Assembly: GCA_937903325.1 (NCBI GenBank)
Contig: CALCZR010000058.1
Span: forward strand, 1,034 to 65,033
Length of the DNA: 64,000 bases
Direction of reading: 5' to 3'
Source: an uncultured Candidatus Saccharibacteria bacterium
GTDB taxonomy: Bacteria > Patescibacteriota > Saccharimonadia > Saccharimonadales > AWTP1-31
The notes under the pieces: generated by a model
Databases searched by the model: none
Seen by the model: only the letters and a program-made list of their open reading frames with translations
Told to the model about the DNA's origin: nothing
Part shown: piece after piece, positions 16,614 to 34,279 of the stretch
Layout: every line of letters starts with the position of its first letter
How positions within the stretch are numbered: the first letter of the stretch is position 1
Made by a program: the position numbers and the translations under genes

Positions 16614-18392
16614 TTACGCTATAATCACCCCTTGTAATTCCACGTTAGTAGGGCGTCGCCAAGTGGTAAGGCACCAGTTTTTGGTACTGGCATTCGGGGG
16701 TTCGAATCCCTCCGCCCTAGCCATATGACCTTCGGGTCGAAATTGAGCTAAAAAAACGTCAGACACCTCTGTCGTTTTTTTATTTTCAGGTGTTCGAACT
16801 TTCAAATCTGCGTAGTTAGGTGTTTTGGTGAAAATTAGGCTGAAAAAGTTAGCTTTTGCAACCGGATTACTCTGTTGGAGTATCAAAATATCAAGGTGTT
16901 CGAAAAAATATCTGGCATAACGCATAACATCCTTCATTCCGAGTGGTTTCTCGATCTTTATTTGTGATTTCTCGTACTGCAAGTTTTCTATCTCCTTTTC
17001 GATACGGACGATCTCGTCCTCAATGAACTTAATGGCTGTTTCGTTATTTAGAAACTTAATCTTATCCATGCTTTGTCGAGCCTCAAGCGAAAGGGCTTTT
17101 ATATGCTCGTCTATAGCATCTGCTTCGTTTATATTGACCGCATTGCGTTTCTCCCATACTTGCATTACTTTTTCCTCAAACGCGTCCATATAGGCCTCAT
17201 TGACCCTCAGACTCTTCACAAACTGTTCTACGGTCTCTTCGAACTCAGCGAGCGGTATACGCACATTGTGGTTGTCTCTACGGCAGTGATAGGCTGGATA
17301 GTACTTGCCGAGCTTGCCACGCGACGCACTGCCGTATAGCGACCTATCGCATTCTGGACACAGTACAGCCTTCTTAAAGGGGAAGTCATTTGTCTTGGTT
17401 CCTACTTTATTGGCATGGTTCGGGTCTTTGTTAACAATTATCTTTGGTTCGCCGCCATTGTCATGGATAATAAACTTTCCACGATTAGCTCGATTGAATA
17501 GATCAACGTCAATAATGCCCTTGAATTTAAGCCTAATAGCTTTGTAGTTCGTCCATTTGCCGTAGGTTATTCCGGCGTACACTGGATTATTAATCATCCG
17601 CAGGAAAGACTTTGGAGCAAGCGGCTCACCTCCTCGTTGGCCGGTAATACGAGTTGGGTCTGACTTATCTCTCGTGTATTGAATATGCGTTTTAAAACCA
17701 CGTTTATTCATGAGATCAATAATCTCTTGATCGGACATTTTGCCTTCGGCTCGTAGCATAAACATGCTTTTCACGGTTGCTGCTTCCGTAGGGTGCGGAA
17801 CAAGGATAGTGCGCTTACCATGAGGTGTTATCTTCTTCTGACACTGCATACCGTAGATATCGCCACGTACCCAGTAGCCCATACGGCAATAGCGGATCTG
17901 TGCACCGATCATACGGCTCATAATGTCACGAATTTCATCTCTAGACTGCTCAGCCGCCAATAGCTCGCTCTTAAGCGTAGGCGAGTAGACACTCCAATCG
18001 TATTCGATACCGAGGTATGCTAGGGTGTTTACTTTTTCCGTACCGATAACGCCATAGGTATCAATGAGGCCAATGTTTAGCTCATCTAGCTGTTCTTTGA
18101 GGTGTCCATACGGCTTAAAGCCACCACGGGTGAAGCGATCGATTGATTTAACTATAAACAACTCAACACGTGAGTCGTTTTTTATCTGGTCGATGGCACG
18201 CTGCATCGGTTGTTCTTTTTTCGAACCAGACTCATAGAACTTAATGTAATCTATGATGACGATATTATTATGCTCAGCATAGCGGTCTATCTGCTCCTGC
18301 TGTGCTTTTGGTGAGTCCTTAAGACCCTGTTCCTTAGACGAAACACGTATGCCGCCGTAAGCATAGCGTACTCTATTCTGTGGTATCGCCAT
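16614..18392 (-). CDS. large serine recombinase (integrase); the 3' end reads antisense through tRNA-Gln
   Basis: Resolvase domain YGGIRVSSKEQ and DRFTRG, recombinase domain, Cys-rich zinc ribbon (CPECDRS...YHCRR), coiled-coil region. ATG at 18392 with a GGAGGGAGAGGAG RBS. The last ~36 codons are the reverse complement of the tRNA. Confidence 0.85.
   Translation of the reverse strand: MAIPQNRVRYAYGGIRVSSKEQGLKDSPKAQQEQIDRYAEHNNIVIIDYIKFYESGSKKEQPMQRAIDQIKNDSRVELFIVKSIDRFTRGGFKPYGHLKEQLDELNIGLIDTYGVIGTEKVNTLAYLGIEYDWSVYSPTLKSELLAAEQSRDEIRDIMSRMIGAQIRYCRMGYWVRGDIYGMQCQKKITPHGKRTILVPHPTEAATVKSMFMLRAEGKMSDQEIIDLMNKRGFKTHIQYTRDKSDPTRITGQRGGEPLAPKSFLRMINNPVYAGITYGKWTNYKAIRLKFKGIIDVDLFNRANRGKFIIHDNGGEPKIIVNKDPNHANKVGTKTNDFPFKKAVLCPECDRSLYGSASRGKLGKYYPAYHCRRDNHNVRIPLAEFEETVEQFVKSLRVNEAYMDAFEEKVMQVWEKRNAVNINEADAIDEHIKALSLEARQSMDKIKFLNNETAIKFIEDEIVRIEKEIENLQYEKSQIKIEKPLGMKDVMRYARYFFEHLDILILQQSNPVAKANFFSLIFTKTPNYADLKVRTPENKKTTEVSDVFLAQFRPEGHMARAEGFEPPNASTKNWCLTTWRRPTNVELQGVIIA
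16649..16723 (+). tRNA. tRNA-Gln (anticodon UUG), CCA encoded
   Basis: Hand-folded cloverleaf. Acceptor TAGGGCG/CGCCCTA, anticodon stem CCAGT/ACTGG with loop TTTTGGT, T arm GGGGG-TTCGAAT-CCCTC. U1:A72 and G73 are as in bacterial tRNA-Gln. A perfect TATAAT sits at 16620-16625. Confidence 0.9.
16750..16786. terminator. bidirectional intrinsic terminator after tRNA-Gln
   Basis: A7 run, stem ACGTCAGA/TCTGTCGT (7 of 8 pairs), 4-nt loop, T7 run. It lies inside the 3' part of the recombinase ORF. Confidence 0.7.
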
Positions 18393-18570
18393 GCTCCTCT
18401 CCCTCCTGTAGCTCCTTGAGCAACAATCTGTCATTGTCCAAATCTATTAGAATGCGATCAACCACCATAGTGGCGATCATCTCGATACGCGTCTCAGTCG
18501 GAAGCGACGTAAAGTACTGCTCTGAAGTGGTAGCTTTTTGGACTAATTCTTCTGCATTAAGTTGAGCCAT
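18373..18570 (-). CDS. hypothetical small acidic protein upstream of the recombinase (65 aa from MAQLN)
   Basis: ATG at 18570 preceded by GGAGGG. Overlaps the recombinase start by 20 nt. Candidate accessory or directionality factor by position only. Confidence 0.5.
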   Translation of the reverse strand: MAQLNAEELVQKATTSEQYFTSLPTETRIEMIATMVVDRILIDLDNDRLLLKELQEGEEHGDTTE

Positions 18571-18585
18571 ACTGTGTCCCTCCAA

Positions 18586-18758
18586 CAGTGATAACTATCG
18601 TTATATCTATAGTTTACTATAACTATACCGATAGTTTCAAGTACTTTGTGTGCAATATAATGAAGTCATCGGTGTCTTCACTCTGATTCCTTAAATGCAT
18701 CTGTTATTATTGGTATTTTTATTCTTCTTTATTACTATATACATATAGGAACAGAAAG
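18586..18758. promoter_or_regulatory. AT-rich divergent intergenic region with four alternating AACTAT/ATAGTT hexamers
   Basis: AACTAT at 18593 and 18621, ATAGTT at 18609 and 18631. ATAACTAT is repeated 28 nt apart, and AACTATCG (18593-18600) is inverted as CGATAGTT (18629-18636). Confidence 0.35.
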
Positions 18759-19592
18759 ATGGTGCGGTGGGGGAAGCTACAATGCTCTATGAAATCAACA
18801 GTATTCATCAATCAATCACAACTAAAGCTATTGCAATTCATTACTAAGTATCGGTTTGTAACAGCTCGACAGGTACAACAAAACTTTGGCTTCAAAAGTA
18901 GGACATCGGTAAACAACAAGTTAAAACGACTAGTGGCTACCGGCCTCATCGGTATGCAGTATGACAAGTCAAAAAAGCTATCAGGCGTTCCAGCTATTTA
19001 CTATGCAACACCGCAAGGTCTCCGCGAAGTTACCTCGCACCTTCCATATATCACTGAAGCAATTATTCGAGCTGCCTATAGTGATGCCGATGCTTCTGGC
19101 ACCTTGATAGAGAAAAGTGCTGAGATATTCAATATCGCCCAGCCCCTTCGTAACCAGTACCCGGATATGACAGTGCTTACGGCACGGCAAATAGGCGACC
19201 TAAGCTATTTTCCGCGGCCATTGCCTGATCTCTACCTTGCACACAAGCGTAGCGACACTACGCATAGGTACTTTGTGTATAACCTGCGAGACACAAAACG
19301 CTACGACATTGCTGTTCGTAGCACCATCACCAAACTCATGTCCTACCGTGAGTCCGAGACCTATGCAGAGTCGGGCAATGAGTTCCCAGCGATCCTGCTG
19401 GTCTGTCATTCAGCAGCCATCGAACGATTAGCCCAACGGGTCATGCAAAGTGCCTTAAACAAGTCGTATGAGTCTATACCGGTATATACGACGAGCTACC
19501 AAGCACTCGTTCAGCTTGAAGATACGAATCAACCCATATGGTCGAGCCTCAACGATCCCGACACTCTCATAACCCTTACAGAAACTGAGTAG
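18759..19592 (+). CDS. replication-relaxation (Replic_Relax, PF13814-like) family protein
   Basis: N-terminal wHTH pattern LKLLQFITKYRFVTARQVQQNFGF...KLKRLVATGLI...YYATPQGL, typical of this family. Alternative ATG at 18789. Confidence 0.65.
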   Translation: MVRWGKLQCSMKSTVFINQSQLKLLQFITKYRFVTARQVQQNFGFKSRTSVNNKLKRLVATGLIGMQYDKSKKLSGVPAIYYATPQGLREVTSHLPYITEAIIRAAYSDADASGTLIEKSAEIFNIAQPLRNQYPDMTVLTARQIGDLSYFPRPLPDLYLAHKRSDTTHRYFVYNLRDTKRYDIAVRSTITKLMSYRESETYAESGNEFPAILLVCHSAAIERLAQRVMQSALNKSYESIPVYTTSYQALVQLEDTNQPIWSSLNDPDTLITLTETE

Positions 19593-19619
19593 TTTTCTGT
19601 CGTACTCAGGACATGGCGC

Positions 19620-20096
19620 CTAGTTATGGCAGTCTACCTGCACAACCCAAAGGCCATCCCAATTTTCCAAGTACTGCGCAAGGCTCACCTGATTCGTTAT
19701 GGGGCTGCCATGGGTATCAAACAGATAGCACGCATTAGCATGATAGCCACTAGCTACACTAAACTGGTAGCGAGACAGATAATGCCCCTCAACCTGCTCA
19801 AACTTTTCATTAAAGATATCTTCGTCACTGTACACCTTACACATAAACAGAATGGTATCCATAGCCAAGCTAAACTCAGCTAATTGACCTCGCATAGCGT
19901 CCTCAACCAACGCTTGACCTTTCTTGGACTGGAGCTGTACCGGCTTCCAGCACTCCTCCCAACGACTATCATCTGCTTCGCTGCTGTACCAATCAAACTC
20001 GTGCTGTTCGATTAGCTGGTTCATCACGCATTCTGCGTGACTATTAGCTTCTTTGGCATCCTGTGCCTCAACAATAAATCGGATTAAGTAATGCAT
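19620..20096 (-). CDS. hypothetical acidic protein
   Basis: 158-codon ORF with an AGGAGAAA-type RBS. No family recognised. Confidence 0.5.
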   Translation of the reverse strand: MHYLIRFIVEAQDAKEANSHAECVMNQLIEQHEFDWYSSEADDSRWEECWKPVQLQSKKGQALVEDAMRGQLAEFSLAMDTILFMCKVYSDEDIFNEKFEQVEGHYLSRYQFSVASGYHANACYLFDTHGSPITNQVSLAQYLENWDGLWVVQVDCHN

Positions 20097-20162
20097 TTCG
20101 TTTCTCCTTATTAGTTAGGTTGTGGGTAGTTTTGCGTCATACCCAGGACTGATGAGCTAGGG

Positions 20163-20489
20163 CTAATACTCCTCAGCCAACATAACGGTTAAAACCTTGC
20201 GGCACTCATCACTAAGTGGGTCACAGTAGCCAGCAAAATCAAGACCGTAGTAATCTATCTTCCAAAACAGTTTGCGACCGTCTAGCTCAAAAGAACCGAA
20301 GTCATGCTCTCCGTACGGATCGTTGTCTTCAGTAAAAGCAGCAAACTCACGAACCTTGCTGATAACCTCGCTAATATTGCAGTTCTCCCACACGCCAGCC
20401 GTAATCGTAAACTCGGCTGGATTGTCAGTGCGGAACATGTCATTGTCCTCGGCAATGATTGCTGCCCGTTCTATTGTTGTAATGTCCAT
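20163..20489 (-). CDS. DUF3768 domain protein (plasmid/ICE-associated family)
   Basis: DNDPYGEHDFGSF and FWKIDYY motifs. ATG at 20489 preceded by AAGGAGGGG. Confidence 0.7.
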   Translation of the reverse strand: MDITTIERAAIIAEDNDMFRTDNPAEFTITAGVWENCNISEVISKVREFAAFTEDNDPYGEHDFGSFELDGRKLFWKIDYYGLDFAGYCDPLSDECRKVLTVMLAEEY

Positions 20490-20728
20490 TGGACCCCTCC
20501 TTGTTATATTCCTGAGAGGGCTATTCCTGCCTCTCTGGCAAGGAGAAACGGGGGGCACACCAAAAGAGTCAAGGTGGAGACTTGTACTACCTTGAGGCTT
20601 TTGGTTTACCCGTATACTAAAAAGACAGAGGAAGGAATCACCCTGTCATATCAAAAACAAAAGATAACGGTATACTAAAGCTAGAGAGGTTTGTGCCTTA
20701 CGCTTTTGCGAGAGGGCATAAGCCTCTT

Positions 20729-20944
20729 TTATTTTGAGTTTCGTTTGTATTCTCTGCGAGCCACATACACAACAACTCCAAGACCCACCAGAGCTAGTAC
20801 AAGAAGAAAGAGGTAGCCAAATTTTGGTATGCCATACGCAAAGTAGTGAAGACCAACTATTAAATGCGCCACTAGTAGTACTGTTATTACGAACGCTAGT
20901 GTATACGGAAGTGTTCTAAGCGCTGCTTTTGTGTTTTTCTTCAT
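20729..20944 (-). CDS. small membrane protein (two TM segments)
   Basis: 71 aa with two hydrophobic helices. 4-nt overlap with the upstream gene. Confidence 0.5.
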   Translation of the reverse strand: MKKNTKAALRTLPYTLAFVITVLLVAHLIVGLHYFAYGIPKFGYLFLLVLALVGLGVVVYVARREYKRNSK

Positions 20945-21420
20945 AAAAACCTTATGGTCTGCAAGACCCTACGTTTGTGTATATCGCTATCTGGAAACAT
21001 ATCTACAATAGTAATCTCATCAATGGCTACCGAGTCGCCAGTATGTAATCGAGCCTTCTTTTGTACGGTTGCATGAGCACGATATCCGTCCTTCATATAT
21101 TTCGGTTCATCGAAAGCTGCGCCTTCAGTCTCCAGTATGCCAACAAGCTTCTTGTGAAGTTCAAGCATATCTGGAGTCATAACCATGGCTGTAACCTGTA
21201 TATCCCGATTTGCTCCGAAGTATTCATCCGCACCGGCGACTAGTTCAAGGGCTTTTTGATCTCTCAGTTTATCGCCAATTACATCAGCTAACTCCTGCGC
21301 ATCATAGGGAACAGTAAAGTTAGCAACTAGTGTTATGTGCAATGGCCAATAGTTGTCGGCGATAAATTCGTCTCCCTCGTGCACGGGCTCTAGGAATTTA
21401 ACGAGTACGTATTTTTGCAT
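20941..21420 (-). CDS. 2H phosphoesterase superfamily protein (LigT / 2'-5' RNA ligase-like)
   Basis: Two HxT/S motifs (PLHITLV and RAHATVQ) at the spacing typical of 2H enzymes. Confidence 0.6.
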   Translation of the reverse strand: MQKYVLVKFLEPVHEGDEFIADNYWPLHITLVANFTVPYDAQELADVIGDKLRDQKALELVAGADEYFGANRDIQVTAMVMTPDMLELHKKLVGILETEGAAFDEPKYMKDGYRAHATVQKKARLHTGDSVAIDEITIVDMFPDSDIHKRRVLQTIRFL

Positions 21421-21429
21421 GTGTTAGCC

Positions 21430-22890
21430 TTATGATTTAGCTCCTGCTAACCGAAGTGCGGTAATCCCAGAAAGTAGCTGTAGGTCTCGCAAGCTTTCGT
21501 CACCACCCTCCCATATAGGGGTTGCCGCAGCATTAAGCCAGAACCCAGCCATCCAGTGAAATGCATCAGGATCTACTCTTTCAATAAGCTCAGCAGGAAC
21601 ATCAAAACCGGACTTTTGGATGTGCGTTAGCGTGGCAGCCAAATCAATATCTCTATCCCCGTATTGTGCCCAATTCCAGTCGACTAATCGAACTTGGCCG
21701 GTCTCTGGATTCCAGGCACAGTTGTCGGCTCTGAGATCGTAATGTACGAGTGTATCGTCAGCAAATTTATATTTGCTGGCTTTATCTGTATCGGCAGTAA
21801 AATCAATACCTTGTGCGATATCGTCCGCACCTACTCCATGGAGTTTATGTCTTAATACTTCTTGCATCTCGGGAGACTCTAAGAGAGGTCGCCAACCGTC
21901 CTCATCCTGGCTGATGCTACTTTTAATAAATATGGTACGTTCAGCATCACTGAGCTTTAATGCAGCCAAGTCGTCCATAGCCTTAAGCGTGGCTGCTAAT
22001 CGTTCCGCAGTCCAGTTATCTTGCCAATCCCAACCATTTTCGGGGCTAAAGGCTTCAAGGGCAAAGGCTGAGTTGTCGGCATTTGTAGCAACAAGGTGCG
22101 GACTGTGTTCGAATCCATGAGCCTCTAAAGCCTTATACACGGCGACTTCTTTTCGTGCCCACATGCGAGTATTCTCCGCCGTGCCAACTTTTACAAACAC
22201 TTCTTTGCCGTCCGGTAGGGCTACGAGGCCACGCTGCGCCTGGCTAAAACCGCCCTCAACATCCTTGAGATGTGGCAACTGTTGTTCGACAGCTTGCCAG
22301 TCGTCACTAGAATCACCGTCTGCTTTCAACACCATCTCAATCTCCGGAATCTCCACAACACCACGCTCACGAGCATCTAAGTCCTCAATAGCTTTTCCGG
22401 TTTTCTCGAAACCATTCTTTTCGTAGAAGCCGATGGCGTTGTCGTTGTAGCTGGCTACATGTAAGTAGATATCCTCATCTCGGCCATGCCAATCAATAGC
22501 TTTATCTAACAGCTTGCGGCCTAGACCTTTGCCCTGAGCTTCCGGTAGTACGTAAATAGCACCAATTCTGCGTTGTCCGTCCATAATGCCTGGAGCAACA
22601 AAGCCCATTACTTTGCCCTCGTCTTTGGCAACAAAGATTGCACGATTTTCGCCACTGGTCTCAATGCCCTTACGCCACCATGCTATTTTGTCGGCAACTA
22701 ACTCACCGTGTTCGCCCTCTACACGATTGCGTACATCCTGTTCGGTAATGCCAGCTTCTTCGTTTGGGTAGGTATCAATCCAGGTTTGACGTTGTACCTC
22801 AAATACACCTGCTGCATCTTCTGGTGTAGCTGGTTGAACTTCGAGTGTTGGAGTGGGTTGCTCTGGCTTGGGGAGGGGTTGTTCGCTCAT
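21430..22890 (-). CDS. fusion protein: N-terminal GNAT acetyltransferase plus C-terminal aminoglycoside-phosphotransferase-like kinase
   Basis: GNAT motif A RRIGAIYVLPEAQGKGLGRKLL. Kinase catalytic loop VHYDLRADN and VDWNWAQYGDRDIDLA. Confidence 0.75.
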   Translation of the reverse strand: MSEQPLPKPEQPTPTLEVQPATPEDAAGVFEVQRQTWIDTYPNEEAGITEQDVRNRVEGEHGELVADKIAWWRKGIETSGENRAIFVAKDEGKVMGFVAPGIMDGQRRIGAIYVLPEAQGKGLGRKLLDKAIDWHGRDEDIYLHVASYNDNAIGFYEKNGFEKTGKAIEDLDARERGVVEIPEIEMVLKADGDSSDDWQAVEQQLPHLKDVEGGFSQAQRGLVALPDGKEVFVKVGTAENTRMWARKEVAVYKALEAHGFEHSPHLVATNADNSAFALEAFSPENGWDWQDNWTAERLAATLKAMDDLAALKLSDAERTIFIKSSISQDEDGWRPLLESPEMQEVLRHKLHGVGADDIAQGIDFTADTDKASKYKFADDTLVHYDLRADNCAWNPETGQVRLVDWNWAQYGDRDIDLAATLTHIQKSGFDVPAELIERVDPDAFHWMAGFWLNAAATPIWEGGDESLRDLQLLSGITALRLAGAKS

Positions 22891-22962
22891 AGGGTTATTT
22901 TATCAGTAAGTTTTGTTTTGTGGGTCAGTTTCGACGTAGGATCAACTAAGAGGGTAATCGCT

Positions 22963-23529
22963 TTACCTAGATTTAAAGGCGGAAAACTGTGGGCTAATTG
23001 GAGTGGTGCCCGAGAAATCTACCGAGCCATGCCACACATCGGCAGTTTCATTATCCAGTTCGTACAGAATGCCATCTGCCAGATCTAAGGCAACGCCTCT
23101 GATCTCACGACCTTCTGTGTTGCGGTCTATGGCAATACTGGCAGGTGCGTACCTAGATAGTTCTTCGGCAATGGTATCTGAAGATGGCCACTTGACTTCG
23201 TCCTGACTTTGCTGTGTTTGGACGATCTGGACAGTGGCGGCCTCAAAGCCGTCACCAAATTGTCTGACTAGTCGTTCGATATCAAAGTCTAGCATGCGTG
23301 TATGTGACAGGTGCGCTAGTAAACCCCTCCCAGACTCACGAGAATGCACAGCAATAGCCTTACAGGTGAATAGCCCCATGGTTGCCACATACGGTAGTTC
23401 CGGCGAATAATCTGCCACTACAAAGTCACCTTCACGCACAGCATGAAAGTTGATTTTTCTATCCATCGGTCGGGTAGAAAAGGTATTAAATTCACCAGAT
23501 GACATGAGAGCTATTATAACACTATACAA
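22963..23529 (-). CDS. hypothetical protein (start uncertain)
   Basis: 188-codon ORF with a TTG start; internal ATG at 23505. The GLFTCKAIAV...GLLAHL segment weakly recalls Cys/His amidohydrolases such as CheD. Not verified. Confidence 0.4.
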   Translation of the reverse strand: MYSVIIALMSSGEFNTFSTRPMDRKINFHAVREGDFVVADYSPELPYVATMGLFTCKAIAVHSRESGRGLLAHLSHTRMLDFDIERLVRQFGDGFEAATVQIVQTQQSQDEVKWPSSDTIAEELSRYAPASIAIDRNTEGREIRGVALDLADGILYELDNETADVWHGSVDFSGTTPISPQFSAFKSR

Positions 23530-23624
23530 CGCTTATGTAAATCACTATATTTGACAATCTGGTATTGTATATGTCCTAATAATCTGGTACTATGTGTGTG
23601 GATTGGGGTGTCCCCAATCGGCAT

Positions 23625-23655
23625 AAGGTCTCCTTTTCGGAGGCTTTTTGTTTTT
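23625..23655 (+). terminator. orphan plus-strand intrinsic terminator
   Basis: 9-bp stem (AAGGTCTCC / GGAGGCTTT, two G:U pairs), 5-nt loop, then TTTTTGTTTTT. There is no plus-strand gene upstream. Confidence 0.5.
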
Positions 23656-23682
23656 ATATACGCCGCCTTAATCCTATTTCTG

Positions 23683-24403
23683 CTACTTAGGAAAGATCTT
23701 AATTCCGTAGCCTATGAAACCTCGTGGGCCACTACGTATTTTGCTACGGATAACATCAAAAGCGATGTTGGGTTCATTGTTATTAATAACATGCCGAGCA
23801 ATCGGGTAAGCACAAAGATCTGCGATCTGTAGGCCACAGTCATTATCTCGCTTAAGCTTAACTTCTAATTCCTGGTCGTAGATATGGATGAGTCGTGCCG
23901 TGTCTATCTGGCTGGTGCCACGATAGAGGAGTTCGTTATAGCGTTTGGCAAGTTGGGCATCTTCACGCTTACCACGTCCTTCAATAATGACATGAATATT
24001 GTCAGCATCTCGTTTGTCATCAGCTTCAAAGACAGTGCGTTCGAGGACGAAGGTCAGAGCAATCTCGTACGGATCATCGGCAAGTTTACCGTAGGTTTGG
24101 ATATGCTTTTCTTTATCTATGGCTGAGGCAATAATGGTGTAGTCCATGTCGGACAAAATGCTATTCAGCTCTTGGTAGAACCGTTTCTTAACTTCGGCAT
24201 CAAAGAAGATCTCAAAGCCACGTTCGTACTTGCGCATGTCTCGACGATGCAAGATGACATCTTGAGTTGTGAAGTACTTGTGCTTGAGAGCAGCTATCTT
24301 CTGAAAACAGCACACCGGTTAGCACAAACACCGGAAAGTTAGGGTCAATCTTCCGAAGCCCATGGTTACCAGATTCATCCAAGAATAATAGGTAGTTGCT
24401 CAC
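23683..24403 (-). pseudogene. DUF3800 family gene split by a frameshift
   Basis: The N-terminal fragment (24212..24403, MSNYLLFLDESGNHG) and the C-terminal fragment (23683..24315) overlap in different frames. The switch lies near the T4 run at about 24300. Confidence 0.6.
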
Positions 24404-24492
24404 AGATCAATTGTAATACCTTACCAGTGGGTTTCAAAAGACGAACGCCGAGTAAGATAATCTAGGCAAACAGAGGTGCTATACTTAGTATC

Positions 24493-25179
24493 ATGAAATT
24501 AGTCCTTGCTTCTCAAGGTTTTACTACTCCTGAGATAGCTAATGCTGTTGCTCGTCTCGCAGGAAAACCGTTTGATAAGCTTCGTGTAGCTGTTATCAAC
24601 GAAGCCTACGTGGGTATTACGGCAGGTCGGCATGAAGGCTGGCTGATCAACGAACTTTCTCAAATTACCCAGTATGCTAATACCGTATCTTTTGTAAATC
24701 TCAGAGCATACGAGCTTGATGAGGTTAAAAAACGGCTTGAATTTGCTGACCTTATTTACATTGTTGGCGGTGCACAACTTGTACTGCCACAGTTATTCCG
24801 TGCAACTGGCTTTGACAAACTACTGACAGAACTCGCCGAAACTAAAGTGATTATGGGTACATCAGCCGGGGCTAACATTCTTGGCAAGCAAATTGAAGAT
24901 GCAGATTACTGGCAAGACCAGTATGGTTCTTCGGAAGAATATCTAGCCAATCCATTCCTTGGCCTTGCTCCTTTTAATATTTTGCCGCATTTTGAACGCG
25001 AAGATCACCCAGACAGAACAACCGTAAAACTCACACCACTGCTTAAAGATCATCCTTTCAAACTGTACGGTGTCACCGATACTCAAGCCGTTATATTGAA
25101 CGAAGACGCGGTTGAATTTGTTGGCGGCGAACCAGCCGAGTTTGGAGTCTCGCCAAAGGCCAGTGAAGTTAAGGGCTAA
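24493..25179 (+). CDS. peptidase S51 / type 1 glutamine amidotransferase-like protein (peptidase E family)
   Basis: IYIVGGAQLVL and MGTSAGANIL (nucleophile Ser) motifs. Confidence 0.7.
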   Translation: MKLVLASQGFTTPEIANAVARLAGKPFDKLRVAVINEAYVGITAGRHEGWLINELSQITQYANTVSFVNLRAYELDEVKKRLEFADLIYIVGGAQLVLPQLFRATGFDKLLTELAETKVIMGTSAGANILGKQIEDADYWQDQYGSSEEYLANPFLGLAPFNILPHFEREDHPDRTTVKLTPLLKDHPFKLYGVTDTQAVILNEDAVEFVGGEPAEFGVSPKASEVKG

Positions 25180-25187
25180 TCACGAAC

Positions 25188-26051
25188 ATGGAATCAGAAA
25201 ATATAGCACCAGAAACAGAAGCATCCTTCCTAGGACGACCTCTCGTCGTTGATAACCAGCAATTCCTTACTGACTTACCAGACGATGTTGAGCCATTTAC
25301 ACCCGATACTTTGGATGCTACAACAGACCCTCTTAACCCTAAAGACCTCGATAAACTTCAGCCTGGAGCCTACACCATCTACTTTGCTGGGGATGATCAA
25401 GTTGAGCCGTACGTGCCTGCTCGATCGATCATTATGCGCAATGGGCCAAAAGGTTTAGTGGTAGATAGCGAATCTTTTGCACCTACTTTTGATGGTAACC
25501 CAGCAGGATGGGTGTTTCCTACCGGCAGCGAGGGGTTATTGCAGGCTCTCGGCTATGAGTTTGCCGACGATGAGTCCGGTCTGTATATTTCTGGTGCACC
25601 AACGCCCGAAACACTTCGCAAGGCTGCTGCAGAATATGGTGTTGAGGTCGTGTTCTTTGATGAAAAAGAGATTCGCTCACCAGAGTATCTGACTGCAATC
25701 AGTGAAGGTAAATATCCTGTGTCATATGACTACTACGACCATGACATTGGCGACGATCATATCACAGCTTTTCTACTCGGAGGTAAGCTATTGAAGGACA
25801 GCCTAAGCCGTGTGGCTCAGGATGCCCTGAAACTGGAGCGAACAGAACAAGATCGAATCACGGCAGAAATAGATACCTTTACAGGATTGTTCCGTCTTAC
25901 TATTGCTACAGGTGTTGATGCTCCTATGTCATCGGGCGGCAAATCTGGTCGTCAATGGACGCATGAATCAGGACGGCGGCTTGGTCTTACTGAAACTGAA
26001 ATCGAAGACATGCTGCACGCTGGCGTTACAAATGCGGAGCAATTCAAATAA
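25188..26051 (+). CDS. hypothetical acidic protein
   Basis: 287-codon ORF, 8 nt after the previous stop. No family recognised. Confidence 0.5.
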   Translation: MESENIAPETEASFLGRPLVVDNQQFLTDLPDDVEPFTPDTLDATTDPLNPKDLDKLQPGAYTIYFAGDDQVEPYVPARSIIMRNGPKGLVVDSESFAPTFDGNPAGWVFPTGSEGLLQALGYEFADDESGLYISGAPTPETLRKAAAEYGVEVVFFDEKEIRSPEYLTAISEGKYPVSYDYYDHDIGDDHITAFLLGGKLLKDSLSRVAQDALKLERTEQDRITAEIDTFTGLFRLTIATGVDAPMSSGGKSGRQWTHESGRRLGLTETEIEDMLHAGVTNAEQFK

Positions 26052-26133
26052 TCTTATCCAATTTAGCTTTGTAACGGAATTAATTGATCTGCGAACATAA
26101 GAGACGTTCTTGTATTCAAAAGAAGCTACTGGC

Positions 26134-27018
26134 TTACTTCTTCGCAAATGCGAGTAGTAATATGCCGAGGATGGCTAGCAAGAAACCGCCTACGATTCGT
26201 ATCCAGTGTCTCTTGGCATCAATTTCTTTAAACAAGAAGATCCCGATTGCCACTGTCCAGACGGCGTTGAGTTGGATAATCGTAAAGCCAATTGAAGCAG
26301 GCACGTAGCGGTAAGCTTGAAGCATAAAGAAACTTGCACCAAGATACAATACGCCAGCGCCAAGTCCTAGAGCGAGGTTGCGAGTATCAATGGTTTTTAG
26401 CTTTTTAAGCATTCCTTTTTGACTCGCAATATACATCAGCAAACTAAGAGCAATTGCCGCACTCCACACTACTTGCTGGGAATATACGCCGACTTCTGTT
26501 GTGACATGCTTGTTAATGACCGTAACCAGACCAAATGCTACACCCGAAAGAGTCGCTAAGTAGATGCCGCCCAAATTTGCTTTTGCTTCTTCCTTTGACC
26601 CAGAAATAGTAAAGGCTATAGCCGACAAGAACACGGCAATACCAGCGAGCAATGCAAACACTGGTCTTGTCTTGGCATACTCACCTAAGATAATGAAACT
26701 TAAAACTACCGCTACTGGACCTTGCAAGTTCTTCCACTGGTTTGACCGCGCCAAGCCAACCTTGTCGATAGACTTAACAAAAGCAACAAAGCCAGTTGCC
26801 CAGATGGCACCCGCCAGCACTGACCAGAGTAACTGAATATTTACTGGTTCATGAAAACCGAGGAGTGGTTTAAACAGATATAAAATAACTGAACTGATGA
26901 AAAAACCTGTCCCCATAAGTAGGCTAAAGAATACCGCTGGCTGGTTAGAAAGCTTGCGAGGAATGACGTACAGACTAAAGAAGATGGAGCTGACAAATGC
27001 TAGTAGGTAGCCGGTCAT
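26134..27018 (-). CDS. DMT-superfamily sugar transporter (GRP/GlcU-like)
   Basis: About 10 TM segments in two homologous halves. Length and pattern resemble glucose/ribose uptake proteins. Confidence 0.55.
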   Translation of the reverse strand: MTGYLLAFVSSIFFSLYVIPRKLSNQPAVFFSLLMGTGFFISSVILYLFKPLLGFHEPVNIQLLWSVLAGAIWATGFVAFVKSIDKVGLARSNQWKNLQGPVAVVLSFIILGEYAKTRPVFALLAGIAVFLSAIAFTISGSKEEAKANLGGIYLATLSGVAFGLVTVINKHVTTEVGVYSQQVVWSAAIALSLLMYIASQKGMLKKLKTIDTRNLALGLGAGVLYLGASFFMLQAYRYVPASIGFTIIQLNAVWTVAIGIFLFKEIDAKRHWIRIVGGFLLAILGILLLAFAKK

Positions 27019-27536
27019 TTAGCTTCTCCCGAAAAATTAAGCGACTCACCCTTAAGTAATGCAAACCCTTTATAGATTGCTTTTACTTCATCATCTTCGA
27101 GGTCTTTTTCACTTACAAAAGTTTGTGGCAGTTCTTTCTCGGTAAACCAACCACATAAACTGTGATCTTCGGGATTCATAACCGGTTCTGAATCTGCATC
27201 TGCTAGCTGGGCAAAATAGATAACTTCAATAGAGTGCGAGCCTTTAATCTCATTCTGGTAGGTAAACACTGCGAAAGGGTCACCAAGACGTACTTGTACG
27301 CTAAACTCTTCTTGAATCTCACGGATTAGCCCATCAGTTACTTGTTCACCAAAGTCTATATGGCCACCAGGTAACTCGTATACACCGGGCAAAAACTTCT
27401 TGGTATCGGCACGCTTGGCCATGAAGACCTTGTGCACCCCATCTATCTTGCGATGAATAAATGCACAGGCCGTTATAACTTGTTGGCCTGGCGTTGGGGC
27501 AGCACTGTCTTGAGTTGCGTTAGGATGACTGGTCAT
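27015..27536 (-). CDS. NUDIX hydrolase
   Basis: Nudix box GGHIDFGEQVTDGLIREIQEEFSV. Confidence 0.85.
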   Translation of the reverse strand: MTSHPNATQDSAAPTPGQQVITACAFIHRKIDGVHKVFMAKRADTKKFLPGVYELPGGHIDFGEQVTDGLIREIQEEFSVQVRLGDPFAVFTYQNEIKGSHSIEVIYFAQLADADSEPVMNPEDHSLCGWFTEKELPQTFVSEKDLEDDEVKAIYKGFALLKGESLNFSGEAK

Positions 27537-28267
27537 AATTGGATTTCCACTAATACCGGTAAGTGATCTGATACATCTGTAGATAGCGTCTGTGCAGATA
27601 CAACTTCTATATCTTGTGACCCAAATACATAGTCTAGACGATAATCGAGTTCGTTGACCTCAAAGCCGTTGTACGAGAATGGCTTAGTCGTCCAAGTATT
27701 TTGGTCGTAGTCTGGACCGAGATTTACAACACACTCTTGAATACGACGAATAACTTCGGAATTAGGCTGGGCGTTAAAATCTCCGGTCAAGATAAAATTG
27801 CTCTTGTTGTTACTGATCGCTTTCACTAAAGCATCGGTTTCTTGCAGCTTTCGCTCAGATGGTTCAAACGCATGAGTGTATGACATATGTACCGTACCAA
27901 CTGTCAGCTTAACGTTGGCTACATCTATCACTGCCTCTACATACGCTCTATTTTCATCATCGTAATTGCCCGAACCCTGCTCCTGATTCACCCAGACTGT
28001 TCGAGTACTGGTAATTGGATGTTTGCTAAATATTGCATTAGCCAACTTGAGCTCCTTGCCTGCAAATGCTATTTCCTGAAAGTGAACGTGGTAGCCAAGT
28101 TGCTCGGCAATAAAGTTTGGCGTATGAATGTGCTGCTGTGTGTCAAAGTTGATAGTCAGCTCTTGCAAGCAGATAATATCGGCCTTGTGGGCCTTCAGGA
28201 ATACGGCAATTTTGTTAATATCCTCAAGATACCAACTGTTCCACTGGAGTATTGAGACTTTAGACAC
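27533..28267 (-). CDS. endonuclease/exonuclease/phosphatase (EEP) family protein
   Basis: ICLQE near the N terminus, GDFN, and a C-terminal SDHLPV motif. Confidence 0.8.
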   Translation of the reverse strand: MSKVSILQWNSWYLEDINKIAVFLKAHKADIICLQELTINFDTQQHIHTPNFIAEQLGYHVHFQEIAFAGKELKLANAIFSKHPITSTRTVWVNQEQGSGNYDDENRAYVEAVIDVANVKLTVGTVHMSYTHAFEPSERKLQETDALVKAISNNKSNFILTGDFNAQPNSEVIRRIQECVVNLGPDYDQNTWTTKPFSYNGFEVNELDYRLDYVFGSQDIEVVSAQTLSTDVSDHLPVLVEIQL

Positions 28268-28637
28268 CGGATAGCTCCTGTGCTAATTGAAAATCCATAA
28301 ATTTCCCTGTTGTTGAGTCCTTCTTTGGTACGAGAGTATCAACGACTGCATCTGTGCTTAGAGAGCCATATATGTGTGGGTATGTTCCGCCCTTGCCGCT
28401 AAGTGGTGCCTCGAACTTTACTTCTGGCTTAACTTTATCGAGATCTACCATCAACAGTAGTATGTCATTCCTGTCAGTGAAATGACGATTGAGCATTGCA
28501 ACTGTTTGATCTGGACTCGTTGCATGAATAAAACCGACTTCGTCGAGTGTTGAATCAATGGTCGATTGTATGTATTCGCCAGTTTCTTGTGCTTTGCTCC
28601 AAATATCTGGCGTTGAGGTAATAATGATGGTTTTCAT
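28260..28637 (-). CDS. DUF952 family protein
   Basis: GFIHAT and YPHIYGSL motifs characteristic of DUF952. Confidence 0.65.
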   Translation of the reverse strand: MKTIIITSTPDIWSKAQETGEYIQSTIDSTLDEVGFIHATSPDQTVAMLNRHFTDRNDILLLMVDLDKVKPEVKFEAPLSGKGGTYPHIYGSLSTDAVVDTLVPKKDSTTGKFMDFQLAQELSGV

Positions 28638-29197
28638 TTAACTATCTCATCTAATAACTCAGGGAGCTTAATAGTCTTAAAATGTCCTCTGTCTGTGTAT
28701 TCCTGGTATTCGATACCTTCTACTCTTTCTTTCAGTATTTCGACCGTCTTCACTACACTTGGCTCATCATCGCTTGAAATGAATACAGTTGTTTTAGCTG
28801 TGCGCGCCGGAAAACCAGTATCGATTTCGAAATCAAAGAAATCTGCGGTGTCAGAAACTTCGTAATTAAGTGGGTTTGTCCATGGGGCAACCAGCACAAC
28901 TTTACCAACTTTTTTATCTTTATTCTCACTCAACCATCGTACCAAAAAACCGCCACCGCAACTGTGACCTACAAGTATTGTCTCTGGCGTAATGTCAAAA
29001 CGCTCAAATTCTTGCTTCCATTCTTCATAGCGAGGGCGGAATGGAAACGGCGGTTCGATTGATACGGCATGAATATCTTTGAGAATTAACTGGCGTTGCA
29101 ACCATGCAAACCAATAGTTCTGGTTATTACTCGGTAAGCTTGGGTCATAATGCTCATCTTTGTCTGGTCTACCTGGTACTAATATCGCATTCTTCAT
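28634..29197 (-). CDS. YdeN/RBBP9-type serine hydrolase (alpha/beta fold)
   Basis: LVGHSCGGGF nucleophile elbow, about 185 aa as in the Ser_hydrolase family. Confidence 0.65.
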   Translation of the reverse strand: MKNAILVPGRPDKDEHYDPSLPSNNQNYWFAWLQRQLILKDIHAVSIEPPFPFRPRYEEWKQEFERFDITPETILVGHSCGGGFLVRWLSENKDKKVGKVVLVAPWTNPLNYEVSDTADFFDFEIDTGFPARTAKTTVFISSDDEPSVVKTVEILKERVEGIEYQEYTDRGHFKTIKLPELLDEIVK

Positions 29198-29640
29198 AGA
29201 GAAACTCTCTTATCTACATAGAAACCGTCCTTAGTTTCTCCATCATTCGTCCAGCCTTCTTTTGTAACAGCTTTGTAGATTCTGGTTGGAGCATCGCCAG
29301 TGCAGTTTTCTCGGTCAAGCTTAAATACAGTTGTAGATTTGTTATAGCGTTCAATTGCAGAATCGAGCTCTTCATCAGGAATTTCACTAGCCTGTGCGCG
29401 AAGATACAGGCCAACACCCTCACCTTCAGGTAGCGTAGAGTCGAAGATCGTTACATATATGTTGGGGTTTTGGCTGATATTTTTTGAATGCTGAGTATCA
29501 GCTGGCGACCACCAGTAGATATCGTGGTTGTCATCAAAAACATACCATACTGGCGCAGCCCATGGTGCTCCGTCTGCATCTATAGTCGATATAGTGGCGT
29601 ATCGTATCTTTTCGAGTATCTTTTTGCCAGTCTCCGTCAT
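29194..29640 (-). CDS. pyridoxamine 5'-phosphate oxidase family protein
   Basis: ATISTIDADGAPWAAPVWYVFD...HSKNISQNP pattern typical of PNPOx-like FMN-binding split-barrel proteins. Confidence 0.65.
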   Translation of the reverse strand: MTETGKKILEKIRYATISTIDADGAPWAAPVWYVFDDNHDIYWWSPADTQHSKNISQNPNIYVTIFDSTLPEGEGVGLYLRAQASEIPDEELDSAIERYNKSTTVFKLDRENCTGDAPTRIYKAVTKEGWTNDGETKDGFYVDKRVSL

Positions 29641-29641
29641 A

Positions 29642-30232
29642 TTATGCAGCTGCCTTTATAAATTTACGTTCAACCCAACCGTTGTTCTGTTCTTCATATG
29701 TCAGATCAGTTGGCTCAAAACCCAGTTTTGTTAACACAGCAACACTACCTGGATTATTATCTTCACAGTAGGCTATAAAATTCTCGACGTGTAATACGTC
29801 TTGGGCCGTCTCCATGACTCGTTGTACTGCATCAGGAATAAGACCATTACCTCGCTCAACTGGATCAAGGAAATAACCAAATCCATAATCATTCGGGCTG
29901 TCTGGTGCATCAAAGGGGTTATCTATGTCTCGCCAAAATGAGACAAGGCCTACCGGCCTATCTGCTGCAAGAAGCGTATAGCGCACAGTGTGGGGATCAT
30001 CTTGATATGTTTCAACTTCTGCTGCAACATCTTCCGGTGAATGCATGCGTGATGCCACTGAGACTCGATCACGGATTGATGGATCGGCTTCTAGTATTTC
30101 TAGCATTCTCTGTGCATCTTCAGCTTCCATGGGCCGCAGTGTTACACCATCCCGAACTTGGATTTCTTTGAGCTCACTAATGCCGTGAAGATTCCTGGGG
30201 CTTGGCTGCAAAGTGTCTATATTTCTATCCAT
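29642..30232 (-). CDS. GNAT family N-acetyltransferase (RimJ/RimL-like)
   Basis: GYFLDPVERGNGLIPDAV motif A region and size. Confidence 0.7.
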   Translation of the reverse strand: MDRNIDTLQPSPRNLHGISELKEIQVRDGVTLRPMEAEDAQRMLEILEADPSIRDRVSVASRMHSPEDVAAEVETYQDDPHTVRYTLLAADRPVGLVSFWRDIDNPFDAPDSPNDYGFGYFLDPVERGNGLIPDAVQRVMETAQDVLHVENFIAYCEDNNPGSVAVLTKLGFEPTDLTYEEQNNGWVERKFIKAAA

Positions 30233-30235
30233 ACT

Positions 30236-30565: not shown

Positions 30566-30566
30566 G

Positions 30567-34271: not shown

Positions 34272-34279
34272 GAACCAAG

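Follow-up and report, generated by a model that had tools for sequence, protein, structure and literature searches.

The window analysed here is a 64,000-nucleotide stretch of DNA from an uncultured Candidatus Saccharibacteria bacterium. It encodes a large serine recombinase (LSR) whose open reading frame (ORF) in the integrated form occupies 16614..18434 on the minus strand, comprises 606 aa counted from the first ATG and ends with a TAA at 16616-16614. Gene callers in the public data place the start at Met15 (18392), giving a protein of 592 aa (P0001). The N-terminus matches the Resolvase domain (PF00239, E 6.7e-10, residues 26-125, motif GIRVSSKEQ), the middle matches the Recombinase domain (PF07508, E 3.4e-7), and the zinc ribbon gives a weak match under Pfam's cut-off (PF13408, Zn_ribbon_recom, E 0.0019). 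In the AF2 model, helices 399-447 and 451-477 follow the zinc-ribbon strands, and a Foldseek search with this model returned full-length matches to the SPbeta, Bxb1 and phiC31 integrases over 500-610 columns (E 1e-17 to 1e-13). A phmmer search of PDB sequences with the LSR protein gave no match, and the sole serine-recombinase match of the family profile to PDB sequences was the TP901-1 catalytic domain (E 1.6e-5). As judged from these profiles and the predicted fold, the enzyme is a large serine recombinase with a catalytic domain, DBD1 and a zinc-ribbon DBD2 that carries a coiled-coil insertion. A syntenic ORF of 65-70 aa without a Pfam match overlaps the LSR start (18373-18585). Excision by serine integrases requires a recombination directionality factor, for which this small ORF is only a candidate.

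The only tRNA gene that ARAGORN identified in the window, tRNA-Gln(TTG) at 16649..16723 on the plus strand, is intact, has an encoded CCA and lies wholly within the 3' end of the LSR ORF on the opposite strand. The preliminary description of this locus had stated that the recombinase frame lacks a stop of its own ahead of the tRNA, and the ORF list and ARAGORN agree: the frame passes a hairpin and then the entire tRNA in antisense. It can do so only because antisense tRNA-Gln contains no stop in the LSR frame, where it translates as (M)ARAEGFEPPNASTKNWCLTTWRRP(T). The description had further proposed that the last 36-40 codons or so derive from the insertion junction. In support of this, P0001 and a second protein, P0121, are identical for 558 residues and completely different after ...GHMA. 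The strictly host-encoded tail that follows this point is somewhat shorter than proposed, with 34 codons (RAEGFEPPNASTKNWCLTTWRRPTNVELQGVIIA) and the TAA (16718-16614, minus strand); two further LSR codons (Met-Ala) overlap the 5-nt crossover core described below. Residues 552-592 of the 592-aa form have an AF2 pLDDT below 50, and the tail of the integrated form is predicted by the model to be disordered.

The crossover point could be located with a second copy of the element. A contig from another metagenome (L091) contains the same element with 99.84% identity over 8,546 nt, joined to tRNA-Gln(CTG), and the genes beyond that tRNA differ from those in the window. The element sides are identical through TGGCT and the two sequences diverge immediately past ...CATATGGCT, which places the crossover in the final five bases of the tRNA gene, AGCCA (attL core, 16719..16723; tRNA positions 72-76). 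The right end of the element, which is also present in two chromosomal contexts, is identical inward from TGGCT and diverges exactly there. The attP site had been suggested to lie within the 3' end of the integrase gene, and both junctions now fix it there, 9 codons past the last structured or conserved residue. The sequence comparison thus puts the attP core within the int ORF, whose 3' end is altered by integration. The att sites share no more than 8 nt, and the junctions limit the crossover to the 5 nt AGCCA. Placing the central dinucleotide at the symmetry centre of the TTCGA motifs yields a palindromic TA, which was not accepted because a palindrome is ill suited to that role; the dinucleotide is therefore resolved no further than AGCCA. 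The tRNA 3' half does not recur as a long direct repeat (no copy at >=32/35 matches), and a T-arm match with one mismatch at 22106 lies inside a gene and was dismissed as chance. Neither a circular junction nor an exact empty site of this particular element was found.

With the left end set by the L091 junction and the right end by its two contexts, the element spans 16724..44230 (27,507 bp). It encodes TrbL/pilin (34280-35728), PrgI (35725-36240), a VirB4-like protein (36832-38571), a CHAP hydrolase (38568-39155), a coupling protein (39125-41707), an HTH protein (41728-41940) and a PLD-like protein (43597-44076, with its ATG at 44076-44074), together with a weak Replic_Relax match (18759-19592; 26.2 bits against a cut-off of 25.3). 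A type IV secretion ATPase, a coupling protein and mating-channel genes are all present, as expected of an integrative conjugative element (ICE), and the Replic_Relax match is the only, weak indication of a relaxase.

The tRNA could in principle be cargo of the ICE or a long attP copy; the overlap would then never vary, and integration would exchange nothing. Perfect pairing of the acceptor and anticodon stems, seen in the window as well as in L001 despite lineage-specific changes, fits a tRNA with a single origin, but the same element adjoins a different tRNA with different genes beyond it in L091. In addition, the LSR family adjoins only one of 80 JGI metagenome loci retrieved with the allele of the tRNA-Gln(TTG) 3' half (87 matching stretches), and 77 metagenome loci carry the same tRNA allele without any such recombinase. 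Finally, the attP-type junctions of L088, L066 and L077 contain no tRNA. We therefore consider a cargo tRNA scarcely tenable and take the tRNA to be the host target.

One metagenome contig (L159) shows this target apparently without the ICE. The same tRNA allele is joined there straight to the 35-nt flank that follows 44230 (92% identity to window 44215-44265), so we regard it as an unoccupied site, although the L159 flank could instead be where an older island without an integrase ends, and not virgin attB. Upstream of the tRNA, L159 differs from the window genome. By the window's own junctions, the empty site would read ...CCGCCCTAGCCAAACTGAGAACCC... The target-side flank at attR (44231..44262, plus strand) forms a hairpin with a T-run terminator (AACTGAGAACCCATCGAAAGATGGGTTTTTTG; fold z -3.8). 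Whether 44231-44262 is itself a P' relic of an older element is neither confirmed nor excluded by the L159 match. A second, older copy of the P-arm mimic, repeat copy 2 of family D1, aligns at 44877..44995 with its core at 44991-44995; codon 4 of its tail frame is TAG, and together with 44231-44876 it constitutes a 765-bp relic. Directly behind it lies a second hairpin and T-run terminator (44996..45031, plus strand, AAGTAAAACGATCACCGTTTGGTGGTCATTTTATTT; fold z -3.3), which is conserved at L159 7339-7378 with CTAGCCA in front and looks like the A-rich sequence that flanks unoccupied tRNA-Gln genes. The 171-aa ORFs of the window and L159 were compared as possible relatives and are unrelated. 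A metagenome scan for an empty site with the neighbouring carboxypeptidase found nothing, and exact-protein look-ups of two flanking host genes returned occupied sites only.

The ends of the ICE also reveal how its attachment site relates to the tRNA. In serine integrases, the DBD2 motif lies 5 bp farther from the centre in attP than in attB half-sites (PMC11722253). Here, the B half-site on the host side consists of the 3' strand of the tRNA-Gln acceptor and the T-arm. The right end of the ICE (repeat copy 1, 44112..44230, defined by repeat family D1 and alignment) contains a P half-site at ~44195-44230 with the core AGCCA at 44226-44230, and this P half-site is a mimic of the tRNA 3' end with 5 extra bp ahead of T(T/G)CGAAC: the P arm of the window reads TGGCTAGGTGG(G/T)AGGG+5+(A/T)T(T/G)CGAAC, compared with TGGCTAGGGCGGAGGG+ATTCGAAC in the tRNA. 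The P arm of L088 reads TGGCTGGGACGGAGGG+TGCAA+ATTCGAAC, and its first 16 nt match the tRNA of L001, the sister lineage of L088, exactly. The same +5 spacing occurs in L066 and L084. Scanning 493 kb for P-arm mimics gave matches only at an insertion length of 5 and none at any other length; a scan of the other loci found only copy 2 of the window, the 8-kb flanks being probably shorter than the elements. The +5-bp offset on the B/P side is present in two lineages. On the prime side, both P' and the target flank have TCGAAA at +14 to +19 without a 5-bp offset, and this absence is not predicted by the canonical model. The element-side P' arm (16724..16749), with a GACC-UUCG-GGUC hairpin at 16727-16738 and TCGAAA at 16737-16742, encodes AQFRPEGH(M).

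To place the locus in its family, we surveyed 360 related loci in GTDB species genomes and more than 1,300 proteins. As far as sampled, the family is confined to CPR/Patescibacteria; viral contigs scanned with the family alignment contained no relatives. A convergent tRNA was present at 52 of the 57 assessable loci (Gln, Glu, Arg, Lys, Leu and Ser tRNAs), and an Rfam search of the loci without a tRNA gave no match. The family targets at least eight tRNA species at a fixed position: in 35 of the 52 loci, exactly 28 nt separate the tRNA 3' end from the last residue that is conserved in the protein. Past the tRNA 3' end, the integrated tails run from ~3 to ~190 codons, and all three reading frames relative to the tRNA occur. 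Many contigs break at the LSR/tRNA junction. Islands appear to pile up in tandem at one tRNA, as in L084 and in the relic of the window.

The survey also bears on whether the long ORF is merely an artefact of a lost stop, a sequencing error or a pseudogene, the true gene ending before the tRNA. Nothing specific speaks for this apart from the low confidence of the tail in the AF2 model. The LSR stop lies upstream of the tRNA in none of the 52 independent loci (within the tRNA in 28, beyond it in 24), the window sequence recurs at 99.97% in an independent contig from a different data source (L003), and the ORF is intact over the 558 identical residues in two samples. The chance that the overlap is spurious is therefore practically negligible.

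Exchange of the C terminus upon integration, as the preliminary description had inferred, is supported by clusters of at least 90% identity, in which the same body is found with tRNA-Gln(TTG), tRNA-Gln(CTG) and non-tRNA tails. A tail shared among homologues from unrelated loci had been named as the result that would refute it. Such sharing exists only superficially, since the common ...EGFEPPNA.TK..CLTTW is antisense tRNA-Gln, and relatives at Glu, Arg, Lys, Leu and Ser tRNAs have other tails in three reading frames.

We then examined the hairpin that the LSR frame crosses before it reaches the tRNA. It consists of A7 (16750-16756), a stem-loop (16757-16774) and T7 (16775-16781), with an MFE of -22 kcal/mol (z -3.3) on the plus strand and -19.5 kcal/mol (z -2.5) on the minus strand; one internal mismatch kept it out of the results of a consensus terminator scan. 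The hairpin had been described as a bidirectional terminator. The structure itself is real, but it is bidirectional only in this sublineage and family-wide points in the tRNA direction. It lies within conserved coding sequence (peptide ENKKTTEVSDVFLA) and not past the end of homology, the A7-hairpin-T7 element encoding NKKTTEVSDVF. Structure is enriched at this position across the family (median z -1.6 versus +0.1 and +0.4 in controls; Wilcoxon p 4e-7). A hairpin with a T-run in the tRNA direction was found at 13 of 61 loci compared with 9 of 610 control windows, and in the LSR direction, under strict criteria, at 0 of 61. Among unoccupied tRNA-Gln genes, 38 of 77 are followed within 70 nt by a terminator-like hairpin and T-run that would be displaced on integration. 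These patterns support the view that the embedded hairpin is mainly an element-supplied terminator for the tRNA built into coding sequence, termination itself being inferred. In this lineage, the A7-hairpin-T7 element could also act on the integrase transcript.

Joining the two ICE ends, a comparison that the preliminary description had suggested, yields a circular-form ORF of 623 aa with a 51-aa tail. The reconstructed attP junction would read ...GAAGGTCATATGGCTAGGTGGGAGGGTGCAG..., and the alternative 3' end of the gene runs through 44225..44070 on the minus strand, with 51 codons (RWEGAVANTYPQHLEITDTLIQSLIDLAHNLRRLGVHDIDGKLIYEEGDVC) and a TAA at 44072-44070. Homologous tails occur in L088/P0125, where the tail is of the attP type, and in P0151, which further supports the exchange of the C terminus. 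The L088 junction comes from an 87%-identical relative, and an origin from a tandem array is possible. Two other candidates for a circular form were rejected: P0127/L089, where a different P-type arm comes after the LSR, and then NUDIX and a gene of the tRNA-synthetase family (tRNA-synt_2d + FDX-ACB), and L084, a tandem arrangement whose second recombinase adjoins tRNA-Gln(CTG).

By analogy with Mx8 IntP/IntX, the tail exchange might be a regulatory switch, with a functional 51-aa extension when circular and a junk tail when integrated. The circular form would then make an integration-proficient enzyme that is co-translated with the PLD-like gene, while convergent tRNA transcription and perhaps stop-less transcripts would leave the integrated form with a weak or unstable enzyme that locks the element in. 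Across the P arm, copy 1 and L088 leave no frame open but that of the LSR, the circular-form stop overlaps the ATG of the PLD-like gene as ATGCTAA, and mismatches in three pairwise comparisons of the tail number 46, 27 and 61 of 108 at codon positions 1, 2 and 3, with P0151 as a fourth homologous tail. This coding-like pattern, as far as alignments can tell, argues against a pure passenger tail in this sublineage. Moreover, the hairpin is flanked by both A7 and T7 in this lineage and could thus end the integrase transcript before any stop codon. However, the coding signal comes from only four sequences, and other sublineages have short, unrelated non-tRNA tails (GIA*, ECFRKNSN*, EHTGQKPF*, PLYAEIRTYFQQNV*). 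The range of integrated tail lengths in three frames, and the absence of a T-run in the LSR direction at the 61 loci under strict criteria, also speak against a switch, and the integrated-form protein must still catalyse excision. We thus consider such a switch possible but unlikely.

Together, our results very probably identify the LSR as the integrase of a 27.5-kb ICE, with attP inside the 3' end of its own gene and crossover in the last five bases of the tRNA. The junction position, both element ends, the tail exchange and the family-wide pattern are shown by the sequence comparisons. We then propose a model for how the gene extends across the recombination site of its element at the tRNA-Gln 3' tip. 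Because the structured protein ends ~9 codons ahead of the crossover, the ORF can stop only on the other side, and in the integrated form its last 34 codons are host DNA that depends on the insertion site. The final ~25 recombinase codons would hold both the integrase-proximal P' arm and a replacement tRNA terminator. When the element is circular, the ORF would end in the P arm, with 51 extra codons in this lineage and 3-40 in others; in the integrated form, it would end in antisense tRNA and host DNA, with 34 codons here. We infer that the exchanged tail is mostly a passenger dispensable for catalysis, and that integrase expression stays low after integration owing to the embedded terminator and to convergent transcription of the tRNA.

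It is tempting to speculate that the exchange, in which a ~50-aa circular-form extension is replaced by antisense-tRNA sequence on integration, serves as a built-in sensor of the state of the element, a proposal that we regard as doubtful. In this proposal, the extension is conserved and the circular-form recombinase is coupled in translation to the PLD-like gene across attP; integration would also bring the 3' end of the gene under a convergent, strongly expressed tRNA gene and the embedded terminator, possibly giving stop-less transcripts. If it were true, the activity or directionality of the integrase would be reset by the recombination event itself. The directionality of serine integrases otherwise depends on the coiled coil and on a separate factor, and a control layer of this kind is not known for them. 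Saccharibacteria and other CPR have few genetic tools. The present analysis gives them exact att sites together with an ICE that was mobile recently, and an integrase that targets universal tRNA genes is an obvious candidate vector. With its copy of the tRNA end plus 5 bp, which varies in step with the host tRNA, the P arm offers a clean case of the half-site rule in nature and a convenient system in which to test it. There are also consequences for annotation: gene callers give chimeric LSR C termini, the seemingly conserved GFEPP motif is an antisense T-arm, and 90%-identity clusters mix proteins with insertion-site-dependent tails. Our literature search found no description of a large serine recombinase gene that spans its own attachment site and has a host-encoded tail. 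The only earlier hint is a set of 14 in silico cases among 297 from TIGER, for which experimental proof was asked for (PMC7192596), and here the arrangement extends through a large coherent clade, with hundreds of related recombinases in CPR bacteria.

Compared with known systems, the LSR resembles phiC31, Bxb1, SPbeta, A118/LI and TP901-1 in its resolvase and recombinase domains and its zinc ribbon with a long coiled coil. As in other large serine integrases, the att sites appear short with few bases in common, and on the B/P side, though not on the prime side, the P arm corresponds to the B arm with its distal motif shifted 5 bp outward, following the published rule (PMC11722253). It differs from the known members in that the Saccharibacteria LSR is highly divergent in sequence, its target is the 3' tip of a tRNA gene, its gene spans attP and the tRNA terminator lies inside its coding sequence. 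Like Islander/TIGER islands, the ICE integrates at a tRNA gene that is left intact and has its integrase gene at the island end adjoining the tRNA. Those islands, however, depend on tyrosine integrases, and the genuine tRNA fragment that they contain generates a long direct repeat, while here only 5-8 nt are common and the tRNA mimic at the far end contains 5 inserted bp. The Islander signature, a tRNA restored by an island-borne fragment, is accordingly not met, only the terminal AGCCA being exchanged. Myxophage Mx8 intP had been cited as a precedent for an attP site within an integrase gene; this holds for the architecture (PMC4383910) and not for the enzyme class. Both Mx8 IntP/IntX and the integrase of the fusellovirus SSV1 have attP in the integrase ORF, and integration changes the 3' end or splits the gene. 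Mx8 targets a tRNA-Asp locus, and integration of SSV1 splits its integrase gene in two. Both are tyrosine recombinases, so the LSR of the window, a serine recombinase, is not a member of their class, and unlike them it exchanges only a short tail beyond the folded domains.

The open reading frame of the large serine recombinase (LSR) spans 16614-18434 on the reverse strand and encodes 606 aa, with its TAA stop at 16616-16614. ARAGORN places the sole tRNA of the window, a tRNA-Gln(TTG) with an encoded CCA, at 16649-16723 on the forward strand, entirely within the 3' end of the LSR ORF on the opposite strand, and the recombinase reads it antisense as ...GHM-ARAEGFEPPNASTKNWCLTTWRRP-TNVELQGVIIA*. 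The two sets of coordinates agree with the preliminary description, in which the LSR frame stays open past a hairpin, runs antisense through the whole tRNA-Gln and stops at 16614. Resolvase and Recombinase domains were identified in the protein, together with a weak match to a zinc ribbon. Modelling with AlphaFold on 44 relatives gave a catalytic domain, DBD1, strands of the zinc ribbon and a pair of long helices, and the best structural matches of the model are the full-length SPbeta, Bxb1 and phiC31 integrases (E 1e-17 to 1e-13). Domains and predicted fold alike place the product among the large serine recombinases, as a divergent member. In the model, pLDDT falls below 50 over residues 552-592, which comprise the linker and the tRNA-encoded tail. 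A 65-70-aa ORF without a Pfam match (18373-18585, reverse strand) overlaps the LSR start and is syntenic in the related loci L001, L084, L085, L088, L089 and L091; it may encode a directionality factor or a regulator.

Clusters at 90% identity contain one recombinase body with differing tails. The window protein (P0001) and its relative P0121 share 558 identical residues and then diverge fully, ...GHMA being followed by RAEGFEPPNAST in the former and by GDEGFEPPITGP in the latter. The locus encoding P0121, L091, matches the window at 99.84% identity along 8,546 nt, from 25203 down to the junction, and has a tRNA-Gln(CTG) with other genes past it; at the junction, ...GAAGGTCATATGGCT continues as AGGGCGGAGGG in the window and as GGGGATGAGGG in L091. 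Both pairs share the element side and differ past the crossover, which bears out the earlier proposal that the final LSR codons are junction-derived.

A search for LSR relatives returned more than 1,300 proteins at E <= 1e-5; a separate scan with one genome per species gave 360 loci, of which 80 were retrieved. These are mostly assigned to CPR/Patescibacteria (Saccharimonadales, Microgenomates, Shapiro-, Roizman- and Levyibacteria, WWE3), other assignments being given in a minority of the MAG titles. The conserved LSR C-terminal end was found by profile in 66 loci, nine of which have less than 84 nt of contig left, leaving 57 assessable. A convergent tRNA directly follows the LSR gene in 52 of the 57: Gln-TTG (15), Glu-TTC (11), Gln-CTG (9), Glu-CTC (9), and also Arg, Lys, Leu and Ser, while Asp and Asn tRNAs were seen in additional loci. 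The conserved Phe lies exactly 28 nt from the tRNA 3' end in 35 of the 52. The LSR stop is never upstream of the tRNA as the LSR reads (0/52), falling within the tRNA in 28 loci and past it in 24, and each of the three possible frames with respect to the tRNA is represented (40, 10 and 2 loci). The whole tRNA is read through in the window because antisense tRNA-Gln has no stops in the LSR frame; tRNA-Glu ends the common LSR frame after 38 nt. Many contigs terminate exactly at the LSR-tRNA junction, which fits what is expected if the junction varies and populations are mixed for insertion state or site. Contig ends about 30-80 nt past the conserved LSR end were noted in L008, L012, L016, L037, L041, L042, L048, L065 and L075.

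In an alignment of the 44 relatives, the conserved part ends with an invariant Phe (F547 in the 592-aa form starting at Met15, in ...TEVSDVF), after which come about nine variable residues and a seemingly conserved (L/M)AG.EGFEPP. We rejected the latter as protein conservation, since GFEP is the antisense of the universal T-arm GGTTCGAATCC. Tail classes follow the adjoining tRNA: ...PPNA.TK..CLTTW goes with tRNA-Gln(TTG), ...PPITGPEPVALPLG with tRNA-Gln(CTG), and further classes with Glu, Arg, Lys, Leu and Ser tRNAs. The hairpin taken for a terminator in the preliminary description codes for the conserved peptide ENKKTTEVSDVFLA and thus lies within the conserved gene rather than past its end.

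A small GACC-UUCG-GGUC hairpin (16727-16738) lies between the tRNA and the gene body, and an A7-stem-loop-T7 element (16750-16781) folds on both strands (z -3.3 and -2.5); a simple terminator scan did not pick up the latter, owing to a single internal mismatch. Across 61 loci, the median fold z is -1.6 over the 75 nt after the tRNA and +0.1 and +0.4 in control windows of the same genes, a significant difference (Wilcoxon p 4e-7 and 4e-8); z is below -2 in 41%, against 2-3% of controls. A strict hairpin with a T-run in the tRNA direction occurs in 13/61 loci and 9/610 controls; in the recombinase direction it occurs after the tRNA in 0/61. Stems at this place vary by sublineage, for example CACCCCT/AGGGGTG, coding for TPLFTGV. 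Integration would cut the tRNA off from the terminator it had before, for which the element may supply a substitute inside the integrase gene. Since A and T runs on both hairpin sides are confined to the window sublineage, an integrase transcript ending before any stop is possible there, expression being inferred, and is no family trait.

The lead to the far end was a weak motif, TTCGA-N18-AGCCA (44968-44995), compared with TTCGA-N13-AGCCA in the tRNA. It lies in copy 2 (44877-44995) of a repeat whose copy 1 is at 44112-44230. The PLD-like protein adjoining copy 1 (43597-44076) was found in many samples in two contexts, identical inward from TGGCTAGGTGGGAGGG and unrelated outward; the element is therefore 16724-44230, 27,507 bp. 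The exchange took place inside AGCCA at both ends (16719-16723 and 44226-44230). In the second right-end context, the neighbour is a serine recombinase of 392-430 aa with standard Pfam domains, accompanied by an Asp/Glu racemase (L092:2277-3569, L094:1785-2963); they probably belong to a further element of the same tRNA locus.

The segment 16724-44230 is an integrative conjugative element (ICE) encoding a Gram-positive-type conjugation set: TrbL/pilin, PrgI, VirB4, a CHAP hydrolase, a coupling protein and a protein with a weak Replic_Relax match. The coupling protein is 50% identical to that after the recombinase in L085. Among the cargo genes of the ICE are one for a GNAT-APH fusion, one for a stand-alone APH-family kinase and two for GNAT acetyltransferases (21430-22890, 29642-30232, 30567-31448 and 32463-32954); the products look like aminoglycoside-modifying enzymes on a Saccharibacteria conjugative element. 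Two genes for Peptidase_S51 proteins and one for an Asp/Glu racemase (24493-25179, 42713-43357 and 41997-42686) are likewise part of the ICE, and the host genes adjoining the tRNA encode a D-Ala-D-Ala carboxypeptidase and VanY; a cell-wall peptide theme may be involved.

The att arms were compared on the recombinase strand, starting at the CCA complement. The tRNA (B arm) reads TGGCTAGGGCGGAGGG-ATTCGAAC, copy 2 TGGCTAGGTGGTAGGG-TGTAA-ATTCGAAC, copy 1 TGGCTAGGTGGGAGGG-TGCAG-TTGCGAAC, and the attP-type junction of L088, an 87%-identical relative, TGGCTGGGACGGAGGG-TGCAA-ATTCGAAC. Over its leading 16 nt, L088 is identical to the tRNA of the sister lineage L001, and the contig could alternatively derive from a tandem array. 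TCGAAC occupies the same +5 position in the L066 and L084 P arms, and a scan of 493 kb for the tRNA end, k bases (k 0-10) and the T-loop gave one match, copy 2 in the window, at k = 5. The attB half-sites of serine integrases have their DBD2 motif 5 bp nearer the centre than attP half-sites do (PMC11722253), and the 5-bp relation between B and P arms is, on these alignments, the one deduced there. The prime-side half-sites do not fit this canonical offset, the target flank and the arm next to the recombinase both having TCGAAA at +14 to +19 from the core. By motif symmetry the centre would be a palindromic TA, and the central dinucleotide can be placed no finer than AGCCA. Just past non-tRNA junctions in unrelated CPR lineages (L066:9660-9800, L077:9650-9800, L084:4800-4870, L089:11730-11790), short hairpins rich in GC and with a GCAA or TTCG loop (e.g. 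CGCTCGGCCTTCGGCCTCGCT, GCGTGCGCAAGCGCACGC) are found repeatedly; they had no Rfam match.

L084 also contains a second, sequence-unrelated LSR missed by gene calling (9300-10830, frame 1; ~500 aa, YARKSSEDEERQ...), which runs antisense into a tRNA-Gln(CTG) at 10754-10828 (...SSWLGMRDSNPRMLGPEPSALPLGESP). The window-type recombinase lies 6 kb further out, which makes two tandem elements at a single tRNA. The 5' half of this tRNA is duplicated 120 nt apart on its host side (10800-10834 and 10920-10954), possibly as a remnant of some other integration system using the anticodon-loop region.

Joining 16724 to 44230 reconstructs a 623-aa ORF with the tail RWEGAVANTYPQHLEITDTLIQSLIDLAHNLRRLGVHDIDGKLIYEEGDVC. 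Its TAA stop (44072-44070) overlaps the ATG of the PLD-like gene (44076-44074) as ATGCTAA, which suggests an operon existing only across an intact attP. Homologous tails occur in L088 (P0125, GTEGANSNTFPQDFEVTDGLLRSLVQLAYKLSMLAIRDIDG...), in copy 2, whose frame has a TAG at codon 4, and in a JGI ORF (P0151). No frame other than that of the LSR is open in this region, and mismatches by codon position (46, 27 and 61 of 108, pairwise totals) follow a coding-like pattern. In other sublineages the non-tRNA tails are short and unrelated (GIA*, ECFRKNSN*, EHTGQKPF*, PLYAEIRTYFQQNV*). We read the exchanged tail as generally a passenger, its function being inferred; given the conserved extension in the window lineage, a regulatory role is possible.

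Searching the tRNA 3' half in JGI metagenomes gave 87 matching stretches, 80 of which were retrieved. The LSR family adjoins the tRNA in only one of the 80, the others having ordinary downstream sequence, and 38 of 77 unoccupied tRNA loci have a hairpin with a T-run at most 70 nt downstream. In one locus, L159, AACTAAGGACCCATCGAAAGATGGGTTTTTTG comes straight after the tRNA and matches window 44231-44262 (92% identity over 44215-44265); compared with it, the ICE appears as a clean insertion between ...CCCTAGCCA and AACT.... Upstream of the tRNA, L159 is unlike the window genome. The target may instead be the edge of an older integrase-less island, as 6.3 kb further on L159 has CTAGCCA and the same hairpin as after window copy 2, preceded by a PLD-like gene 41% identical to that of the ICE; the window may then keep only 765 bp (44231-44995) of that island. 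The evidence fits both a virgin attB and an island relic, and the choice is not decided. The 765 bp, bounded by the ICE end and the second P-arm mimic, contain one unannotated 171-aa ORF (44287-44802) and look like such a relic; the 6.3-kb island of L159 in the corresponding position encodes GNAT, MFS, ABC-F and PLD-like proteins. Neither a circular junction nor an exact empty site was recovered for the window ICE itself.

Full-text literature searches found no description of such elements in Saccharibacteria or CPR. Serine integrases have been stated not to use tRNA genes as targets (PMC4383910); the TIGER survey gave 14/297 candidates and called for experimental proof (PMC7192596). As in the window LSR, the genes of Mx8 IntP and the SSV1 integrase span attP (PMC4383910), but these are tyrosine recombinases. 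The outcome is similar to that of tRNA-targeting islands, whereas their displaced-tRNA-fragment signature is missing from the window ICE.
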